48,242 bases of DNA, from contig LJNG01000005.1 in the NCBI GenBank assembly GCA_001302985.1, forward strand, positions 1-48,242, in the 5' to 3' direction. The DNA is from Parcubacteria bacterium DG_74_3. Lineage in GTDB: Bacteria; Patescibacteriota; Minisyncoccia; Minisyncoccales; DG-74-3. The position numbers and the translations under genes were made by a program. The notes beneath the pieces are model-generated. The model searched no databases and had not been told where the DNA came from. It saw nothing but the letters and a program-made list of their open reading frames with translations. Shown here in pieces: positions 8,036 through 37,112 of this stretch (position 1 is its first letter; every line of letters starts with the position of its first letter).

Positions 8036-8064
8036 TTGACTTTTATCAAAAAATAAGATAATAT
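8036..8064 (+). promoter_or_regulatory. Sigma70-like promoter for the tRNA cluster
   Basis: TTGACT (8036-8041), 17-nt spacer, TAATAT (8059-8064), about 17 nt before the first tRNA. Confidence 0.55.
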
Positions 8065-8080
8065 ATTCCCATTGGAACGA

Positions 8081-8151
8081 AGCGGGGTAGAGGAGTAGTA
8101 CCTTACCAGGCTCATAACCTGGAGACGCTGGTGCAATTCCAGCCCCCGCAA
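8081..8151 (+). tRNA. Initiator tRNA-Met (CAT) with atypical D- and T-loops
   Basis: Acceptor AGCGGGG/CCCCGCA with an A1:A72 mismatch, A11:U24, anticodon loop CTCATAA and discriminator A. The register matches E. coli tRNA-fMet. D-loop is AGTAGTA and T-loop TGCAATT. No CCA encoded. Confidence 0.7.
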
Positions 8152-8224
8152 GCCAGTATAGCTCAATGGTTAGAGCAATTGCATCATAAGCAAGAGGTTG
8201 CGGGTTCGAATCCTGCTACTGGCA
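8152..8224 (+). tRNA. tRNA with CAT anticodon (elongator Met or Ile2, undecidable by eye)
   Basis: Acceptor GCCAGTA/TACTGGC, D arm GCTC-AATGGTTA-GAGC, anticodon loop ATCATAA, T arm GCGGG-TTCGAAT-CCTGC. It starts the base after the previous tRNA. Confidence 0.85.
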
Positions 8225-8393
8225 TAAAATTTTGGTGACTGAGTAGGGCTTGGGCATAGGTCGCCTCAGAACTAAAGCTAAGCTCAGTTCGGCGCAGCCC
8301 TGAAGACAACTCATTATTCTACTTGGGAGAACCCCCACCCCACTGAGTTTGCGGATGTAACTTAGTTCTGATAAAAACGCTCAGGACAATTAT

Positions 8394-8469
8394 GGACCCG
8401 TAGTGTAGCCCGGTTTAACACGCTTCCCTGTCACGGAAGAGATCGCCGGTTCAAATCCGGTCGGGTCCG
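8394..8469 (+). tRNA. tRNA-Asp (GTC)
   Basis: Acceptor GGACCCG/CGGGTCC, anticodon loop CTGTCAC, T arm GCCGG-TTCAAAT-CCGGT, discriminator G. Confidence 0.9.
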
Positions 8470-8521
8470 CAAAATAAATTCTTAGTAAGGTCAAATTCTA
8501 TTGCCCGGCCCAATTATTATT

Positions 8522-8542
8522 GAGGGAAAGACCCTCTTTTTT
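8522..8542 (+). terminator. Intrinsic terminator after the tRNA cluster
   Basis: GAGGG-aaaga-CCCTC followed by TTTTTT. Confidence 0.6.
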
Positions 8543-37022: not shown

Positions 37023-37106
37023 GGGTGGTTGGCGGAGTAGTCAAACGCATCAGTCTGTAAAACTGACGGTCACTGACCTACGGGGGTGCAAATCCCTCAC
37101 CACCCA
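37023..37106 (+). tRNA. tRNA-Tyr (GTA), class II, with atypical D- and T-loops
   Basis: Acceptor GGGTGGT/ACCACCC, anticodon loop CTGTAAA, long variable arm GGTC-act-GACC. D-loop is GAGTAGTCAAA and T arm GGGGG-TGCAAAT-CCCTC. Confidence 0.75.
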
Positions 37107-37112
37107 CAAATT

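Follow-up and report, generated by a model that had tools for sequence, protein, structure and literature searches.

The window considered here is a 48,242-nucleotide stretch of the genome of Parcubacteria bacterium DG_74_3 (contig LJNG01000005.1); it is contig C4 of a 21-contig, 543,780-base genome rated 97% complete. On its forward strand, at 8081-8151, lies a gene for an initiator-type tRNA-Met in which both bases of the G18-Psi55 contact at the tRNA elbow are replaced. The gene and its defining elements are the following.

8081-8151, forward strand: initiator-type tRNA-Met(CAU), 71 nt, found by ARAGORN and Rfam, with a 4-nt variable region and no encoded CCA
8094-8100, forward strand: D-loop AGTAGTA, with A18 at 8097 and G19 at 8098 (Infernal alignment)
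8113-8115, forward strand: anticodon CAT (ARAGORN)
8132-8138, forward strand: T-loop TGCAATT, with U54 at 8132, G55 at 8133, C56 at 8134, A57 at 8135 and A58 at 8136

ARAGORN calls six tRNAs in the window, and the Rfam tRNA model matches the same six. The initiator scores 56.5 bits against RF00005 (E 1.3e-9; gathering score 29 bits), with model positions 1-71 covered. The Infernal alignment of AGUAGUA in the D-loop with the consensus AaUGGUA places A on G18 and G on G19, while that of UGCAAUU in the T-loop with UUCgAaU places G on U55. The tRNA is without G18 and U(Psi)55, carrying A at 8097 and G at 8133 in their place; G19:C56, U54 with A58, G53:C61 and the 7-nt T-loop are all kept. The original prediction, made from the letters of the window, had read the same AG D-loop and TGCAATT T-loop with 19:56 retained. 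The Infernal alignment agrees, both programs keep the proposed register, and no register that restores GG and T-Psi-C was found.

A1 stands opposite A72, a pair flagged by Infernal as non-standard, the discriminator is A, and the D-stem GAGG/CCTT contains A11:U24, a feature of bacterial initiator tRNAs. The anticodon stem has A29:U41, G30:C40 and G31:C39, which amounts to two of the three initiator G:C pairs and not the full set. The original prediction had listed each of these traits, and the sequence together with the Infernal alignment bears them out. Column 29:41 is A-U in 23 of 27 aligned initiator orthologues, and 1:72 is mostly C-A in relatives, with U-A, which is able to pair, in three. 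The consensus of the 27 orthologues is a cloverleaf of 20 pairs, 14 of which have changed on both sides and 0 of which are broken. Such compensatory changes with no broken pair indicate that these genes are under normal tRNA constraint.

This is also the only initiator candidate in the genome. There are two tRNA(CAU) genes, and in the other one, at 8152-8224, bases 1 and 72 can pair and the elbow is canonical. Since a tRNA-Ile(UAU) gene is present as well (contig C1, 88748-88821) and the genome has no TilS-family match above cut-off, 8152-8224 is assigned as an elongator and 8081-8151 is left as the sole candidate. A second, canonical initiator, the possibility raised with the original prediction, has no counterpart among the tRNA(CAU) genes of this assembly. 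As a separate observation, tRNA-Ile(UAU) together with the lack of a TilS match suggests that AUA is read without lysidine in this organism.

Positions 18, 55 and 57 change together

Among the 46 tRNAs that ARAGORN finds in the whole genome, 43 have GG and TTC, three have AG and TGC, and 0 are mixed. A18 occurs in 3 of the 46 and G55 in the same three (Fisher p = 6.6e-5). Besides the initiator, these are:

37023-37107, forward strand: tRNA-Tyr(GUA), with AG at 37039-37040, T-loop TGCAAAT at 37087-37093 and G55 at 37088
contig C1, 91414-91486, complement strand, outside the window: tRNA-Cys(GCA), with an AG D-loop and a TGCAATT T-loop (ARAGORN)

The same double change had been noticed in tRNA-Tyr beforehand, as had the GG and TTC of the remaining four window tRNAs, and the loop tabulation agrees on both counts. 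Carrying the tabulation of positions 18, 19, 55 and 56 through the whole genome, as had been proposed, added tRNA-Cys as the third case and found A18 and G55 always together. The initiator Met, Tyr and Cys genes are the only ones of their kind in the assembly.

A BLAST search with the 71-base initiator in 40 genomes of the family and order gave a match in 36 of 41 genomes, counting the source genome, and 30 loci were fetched. In 27 of the 29 relatives' loci, the initiator combines AG[T/C]AGTA or AACAGTA with TGCAA[A/T]T. One relative, G010, has a canonical AGCGGTA/TTCGATT initiator, and one other locus has no initiator call at the match. Searches of the same 40 genomes with tRNA-Tyr and tRNA-Cys gave 20 loci each, which divide into 14 AG/G55 and 6 GG/U55 for Tyr and into 16 and 4 for Cys. 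The flanks of these loci contain AG/G55 forms of tRNA-Thr(GGU) (5), His, Leu(UAA) and Phe, and an elongator Met of this type lies at locus L012. The aligned tRNA-Tyr genes, plainly one orthologous lineage, comprise 6 with G18/U55/G57, 11 with A18/G55/A57 and 1 with A18/G55/G57.

The loci of the 40 relatives yield 189 distinct tRNAs. This set was picked by BLAST and not by loop sequence; identical sequences were merged, and it excludes the source-genome loci L001, L210 and L231 as well as L252, which duplicates another locus. It holds 120 GG/U55 and 64 AG/G55 tRNAs, with 0 AG/U55 and 0 GG/G55. The other five are two GG/C55 tRNAs, one swap of C19:G56 and two loops miscalled by ARAGORN. The swap is found in the tRNA-Leu(UAA) of G040 (L234:1412-1496, minus strand), which has GC in its D-loop GAACTGCTATA and the T-loop TTGGAAT, so that G19:C56 has become C19:G56. 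GG with C55 is seen in two elongator tRNA-Met genes (L006:1420-1492, minus strand, TCCGATT; L013:820-894, minus strand, TCCAAAT) and represents a second, rarer departure at position 55.

Position 57 follows the other two. When the source genome is added to the BLAST set, A57 is found in 64 of 67 AG/G55 tRNAs and in 66 of 161 GG/U55 tRNAs, a tally of 228 that leaves out loops miscalled by ARAGORN and tRNAs that are neither GG/TC nor AG/GC. U54, A58 and G53:C61 are invariant in both elbow classes, as are G19:C56 and the T-loop length of 7 nt. Judging by these tallies, position 57 is a third co-varying partner.

A separate feature of the order concerns the anticodon loop. In 13 of the 29 initiators listed, counting that of the source genome, the near-universal U33 is replaced by C33, giving the loop CCCATAA (L006, L007, L010-L014, L016-L018, L024, L026 and L027); the window copy has U33.

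At the level of the phylum, positions 18-19 and 55 of tRNA(CAU) genes were read by four pattern searches of 401 genomes, a number that includes G274, which is flagged as unpublished and on which no single claim is based. A pattern allowing any combination at 18 and 55 matched in 364 of the 401 genomes, and among the 150 of 763 matches listed, all 23 with AG have G55 and all with GG have U55. The AG/G55 pattern is found in 68 of the 401 genomes and in 55 of 320 genera (70 matches, two of them not tRNA-like), in initiator-like and elongator-like Met tRNAs alike and across many families. This prevalence is a lower bound, since the patterns require CTCATAA and many initiators of the order have CCCATAA. 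The mixed forms are scarce. GG with G55 matched in 3 of the 401 genomes, with one real tRNA among the matches (L151). AG with U55 gave 26 matches in 24 genomes; 24 of these begin with AGG, which is a normal GG after an A, and the other two are a sequence that is not a tRNA and a doubtful, odd tRNA of 79 nt (L177).

A scan of named species genomes returned at least 120 loci, mostly chance matches in large genomes, and only tRNAs confirmed by ARAGORN were used. Among these, AG/G55 tRNA(CAU) genes occur in records labelled Saccharibacteria, Parcubacteria, Adlerbacteria, Nomurabacteria, Doudnabacteria, Niyogibacteria, Tagabacteria, Kaiserbacteria and 'Patescibacteria group'. They also occur in tRNA arrays of metagenome-assembled genomes (MAGs) that carry labels such as Hyphomicrobiaceae, Chloroflexaceae, Rhodocyclaceae, Actinomycetes and cyanobacteria. 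Among the loci listed, the named initiators nearest to that of the window come from Adlerbacteria, Parcubacteria and Saccharibacteria records. A different kind of array is seen in a MAG labelled Verrucomicrobiaceae (L033:3235-5808). It holds 15 tRNAs, nearly all with a base other than U at 55 (G or another), with CAG-type D-loops and several irregular T-loops (AGCGTCA, TGCTACT); one tRNA-Asn combines GG with G55.

The elbow variant in viral tRNA clusters

Four patterns that differ at 18 and 55 alone were searched in the IMG/VR contigs, with the following result.

AGTAGTA (A18) with GTGCAA (G55): at least 120 contigs
AGTGGTA (G18) with GTTCRA (U55): at least 116 contigs
AGTAGTA (A18) with GTTCRA (U55): 1 contig, a real-looking tRNA (L390)
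AGTGGTA (G18) with GTGCRA (G55): 0 contigs

In all, 601 tRNAs are present in the 120 listed AG/G55 viral loci, the largest cluster having 28. Of the 601, 437 are GG/TC and 143 are AG/GC, with 0 GG/GC and 0 AG/TC. Met tRNAs make up 122 of the AG/GC class, which otherwise holds Ser, His, Leu and a small number of further tRNAs; as a Met pattern was used to pick the loci, this preponderance of Met is in part built in. Many of the large clusters have no AG/G55 tRNA besides the initiator-like Met, and most viral AG/G55 copies have an encoded CCA. Position 57 behaves as it does in the bacteria, with A57 in 142 of 145 G55 tRNAs versus 81 of 449 U55 tRNAs.

Four viral loci carry the variant in additional tRNAs. 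L306, L323 and L359 each have three AG/G55 tRNA-Ser and L263 has one, Ser-CGA, all with a second Met beside the initiator-like one. The Ser and second Met tRNAs have the D-loops GACAAGCG and AAAAGTA and the T-loop TGCAAGT, and an AG/G55 tRNA-His is added in L263 and L323.

A link to cultured phages was considered and dropped, as all sampled phage initiator-like tRNAs have GG at 18-19. BLAST with the window tRNA gave 15 phage records, of which 9 were taken (9 of 9 GG/U55), and BLAST with a viral AG/G55 tRNA gave 75, of which 8 were taken (7 GG/U55 and 1 GG with ATCATAC). Thus 17 of 17 initiator-like tRNAs sampled from named phages are GG, 16 with U55 and one with the aberrant T-loop ATCATAC.

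Across many isoacceptors and lineages, positions 18, 55 and 57 switch as a set, and intermediates are nearly absent. The A18/G55/A57 module recurs, its changes are tightly coupled, and it is not the oddity of a single gene. The original prediction had proposed covariation of a tertiary contact rather than decay, and had named the independent occurrence of A18 and G55 in relatives as the outcome that would speak against it. The proposal is supported: the two practically never occur apart, and mixed forms are almost absent within the genome, the order, the phylum and the viral contigs.

Enzymes that modify the elbow

Family searches of the source genome gave no match to TruB_N, SpoU_methylase (the TrmH family), tRNA_U5-meth_tr (TrmA) or GCD14 (TrmI), and the GIDA search gave one N-terminal match of 32 residues. 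The same method did find a PseudoU_synth_2 enzyme. As far as family matches can tell, the known modifiers of G18, U54, U55 and A58 are undetectable in this genome. The proposed check for truB and trmH therefore came out negative for both. The accompanying claim, that the initiator has lost the substrates of TruB and TrmH, stands as far as the bases go, as they are indeed absent, and becomes moot in that neither enzyme family is detectable here.

TruB was found in 7 of the 41 order genomes versus 73 of 100 in a phylum sample. Of the order's Cys and Tyr genes, 0 of 30 with AG/G55 and 5 of 10 canonical ones lie in TruB-positive genomes, counts in which kin are not independent. The initiator is AG/G55 in all 6 TruB-positive order genomes with a BLAST match. 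In the phylum sample, the share of TruB-positive genomes is 10 of 15 where a tRNA(CAU) has AG/G55 and 63 of 85 where none does (p 0.54). An explanation of the module as compensation for lost Psi55 was considered on these grounds and rejected, being suggestive in the order and unsupported in the phylum sample. Because the phylum-level association is absent, loss of Psi55 is not the explanation of the initiator variant. Such loss may at most have made it easier for the module to reach further tRNAs of the order, and relatedness confounds even that.

The iMet-Met-Asp cluster and a possible path to a mature initiator

The initiator is the first gene of a cluster whose order, initiator Met-Met-Asp, is kept in relatives. 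The other features of the cluster are:

8152-8224, forward strand: elongator tRNA-Met(CAU), canonical elbow with GG and TTCGAAT (ARAGORN, Infernal)
8394-8470, forward strand: tRNA-Asp(GUC), canonical elbow, third gene of the cluster (ARAGORN)
8036-8064, forward strand: promoter-like site, TTGACT, 17 bases, TAATAT (consensus scan; 3 sites versus 1.5 expected, weak)
8522-8536, with a T run to 8546, forward strand: terminator-like hairpin (consensus scan; 1 site versus 1.2 expected, weak)

The spacer between the two Met genes is 0: the discriminator of the initiator is base 8151 and the next tRNA starts at 8152. The abutment pointed out in the original prediction is therefore real, and it is peculiar to this genome; the spacer measures 5-756 bases by ARAGORN coordinates in the 24 relatives in which both genes were called. 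The second spacer of the cluster, between tRNA-Met and tRNA-Asp (8225-8393), is 169 bases long, and in most relatives it runs from a few bases to a few dozen. Apart from the tRNA edge, Rfam matched nothing in it up to an E of 1, and it shows no fold signal (z -0.02).

This arrangement suggests how the initiator might mature. It would be transcribed together with tRNA-Met and tRNA-Asp, and its 5' end would be cut by RNase P, whose RNA is present in the genome. As no spacer intervenes, the cut by which RNase P generates the tRNA-Met 5' end would also free the 3' end of the initiator exactly at the discriminator and leave it ready for CCA addition. CCA could then be added by the CCA-adding enzyme, a family member of which is encoded in the genome. 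With A18 and G55, the product would be unable to carry Psi55 or Gm18, and its elbow would be independent of both.

The mature initiator is probably used without formylation. The assembly has no match to Formyl_trans_N (fmt) or Pep_deformylase; at 97% completeness this absence is not proof, and as a control, 14 genomes were searched, of which 12 had a match to the first family and 10 to the second. The lack of both families suggests that initiation may use unformylated Met-tRNA. The original likening to tRNA-fMet is thus correct as to the initiator type and doubtful as to the 'fMet' label.

Interpretation of the altered elbow

The gene at 8081-8151 is most probably a functional initiator tRNA-Met whose elbow would be built from alternative tertiary partners: A18, acting with G55 and A57, would stand in for G18 and its partners U/Psi55 and a purine at 57 (R57). 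In such an elbow, A18 would still be stacked between bases 57 and 58 and touch base 55, and the L-shape would be kept. U-turns and GNRA turns resemble each other. The sharp turn otherwise made by Psi55-C56-R57 would probably be made here by G55-C56-A57-A58.

Several observations weigh against this reading. We infer the A18-G55 contact itself from covariation alone, and expression of the initiator, its CCA addition and its charging are predicted from sequence. The minimum-energy fold of the isolated initiator pairs the D-arm with the T-arm at -31.6 kcal/mol, versus -29.4 kcal/mol for the cloverleaf (nearest-neighbour energies). Several of the data sets were picked by patterns that hold the motif, and the raw AG/G55 counts exceed the number of independent events. 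The aligned AG/G55 tRNA-Thr genes of different genera are closer to each other than to the canonical Thr genes of their congeners, so that part of the patchiness would be gene-lineage replacement and the independent double changes would be fewer than the raw counts. Rare real exceptions exist in L151 (GG/G55) and L390 (A18/U55). Finally, the phylum genomes with and without an AG/G55 tRNA(CAU) hardly differ in TruB.

Two alternatives are decay and a shifted register. If the tRNAs were decaying or pseudogenes, the loop changes would be damage in disused copies, and the Rfam scores of the two AG/G55 window tRNAs (56.5 and 56.9 bits), the lowest of the six, as well as the anticodon stem with just two of its three initiator G:C pairs, fit this idea. 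It is scarcely credible in view of the rest: these are the sole initiator-type Met, Tyr and Cys genes of a nearly complete genome, 27 of 29 relatives' loci keep the initiator form, compensation is seen in 14 of 20 stem pairs with none broken, and the same two bases are altered each time. The other alternative is a shifted register, A17-G18-U19, which would retain G18 at the cost of the 19:56 pair and make G55 an unrelated change. A 7-nt D-loop does leave some freedom of numbering, and the Infernal posterior is slightly lower there (9 rather than *). This register is nonetheless very improbable, as Infernal puts A on G18 and G on G19 and C56 is invariant in the G55 class. In the Thr and Tyr alignments, the G of AG stands in the invariant G19 column, and the column before it alternates between A and G as position 55 alternates between G and U. 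The C19:G56 swap in tRNA-Leu(UAA) likewise indicates that the second base of the dinucleotide is the one that pairs with 56.

The other explanations accept the variant and differ on what it does. It might be structurally equivalent to the canonical elbow and neutral, fixed by drift in the small, fast-evolving genomes of candidate phyla radiation (CPR) bacteria and phages with no functional consequence. This is possible but less likely than not: the variant is patchy over families and isoacceptors (initiator Met, Cys, Tyr, Thr, His, Leu, Phe and elongator Met in the order), it has no link to TruB at the phylum level, and it is found in lineages known for fast sequence change. Drift accounts less readily for an initiator that has the variant far more often than other isoacceptors do, as in the relatives' loci, and that is often the sole such tRNA among 15-28 in large phage clusters (loci picked by a Met pattern), or for the contrast between AG/G55 and canonical Cys and Tyr genes in TruB-positive order genomes (0 of 30 versus 5 of 10, kin not independent). 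The other possibility is an adaptive role, in which the tRNA is independent of, or invisible to, factors that read the elbow (TruB as enzyme or chaperone, TrmH, elbow-directed nucleases or defences), or in which the contacts between initiator and ribosome are tuned. Enrichment in the initiator-type tRNAs of phage clusters and CPR bacteria, the undetected elbow-modifying enzymes of the source genome and the association of AG/G55 Cys and Tyr with TruB absence in the order all point this way. The adaptive role is somewhat doubtful all the same, as no factor has been identified, the TruB association is absent at the phylum level, the 17 sampled named-phage initiator-like tRNAs are all without the A18/G55 variant, and the Met enrichment is in part an ascertainment effect of the search patterns.

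The broadest version of the proposal combines several of these elements. It holds that A18-G55-A57 is a distinct, undescribed elbow architecture with a GNRA-like T-loop turn that has no need of Psi55, that it defines an initiator class common to CPR/Patescibacteria, uncultivated phages and mobile tRNA arrays, and that it is kept because it frees the tRNA from enzymes or defences that read the elbow, or because it tunes initiation, and is thus not neutral. Taken as a whole, this proposal is unlikely.

Comparison with known tRNAs

The window tRNA can be compared with the canonical bacterial initiator of the E. coli tRNA-fMet type. Both have the CAU anticodon, a 1:72 mismatch, A11:U24, discriminator A, G30:C40, G31:C39, G19:C56, U54/A58 and G53:C61. 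The window tRNA differs in having A18, G55 and A57 for G18, U55 and R57, A29:U41 for the first G:C pair and a 4-nt variable region, and its genome differs in the lack of any formyltransferase or deformylase family match.

Eukaryotic cytoplasmic initiator tRNAs have a special T-loop with A54 and A60, and some eukaryotic initiators have C33. They resemble the window tRNA in that the T-loop/D-loop substructure departs from that of elongators, and C33 is found in many of its relatives. The positions involved are different, however, being 18, 55 and 57 here and not 54 and 60, and the module also occurs in elongators such as Tyr, Cys, Thr and others.

Departures from GG and T-Psi-C are known in other settings. 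The staphylococcal cell-wall tRNA-Gly is without the elbow consensus. Many metazoan mitochondrial tRNAs are likewise without it, according to excerpts of PMC4810234. In those tRNAs, the interaction is lost or the role lies off the ribosome, whereas the window tRNA keeps G19:C56, U54-A58 and the loop sizes, and its change is a strict swap of two to three positions in the sole genes for their amino acids.

Further counterparts are initiator-like tRNA(CAU) genes whose loops read AGTAGTA and TGCAA, found in phage clusters on at least 120 IMG/VR contigs and in bacterial tRNA arrays. Unlike these, the window gene is a chromosomal housekeeping gene in a conserved initiator Met-Met-Asp cluster and encodes no CCA, which most viral copies do.

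A probable second solution for the 18-55 contact

Excerpts of PMC7912444 and PMC4810234 treat G18-Psi55 as a tRNA invariant and rank Psi55 first in conservation among tRNA modifications, and an excerpt of PMC4117946 states that no single mutation of the 18-55 pair is tolerated in a yeast suppressor tRNA. A full-text literature search, with older subscription papers and supplements outside its reach, found no description of natural A18/G55 tRNAs. A replacement that is natural, recurrent and tightly coupled suggests a second workable solution for this contact. It offers structural biology a concrete three-position swap, and annotators should not take the lack of GG and T-Psi-C in such genes as the mark of a pseudogene. 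It also identifies whole tRNA sets that must lack Psi55 and Gm18, and raises the question of why the initiator tRNAs of CPR bacteria and phage clusters favor A18/G55.

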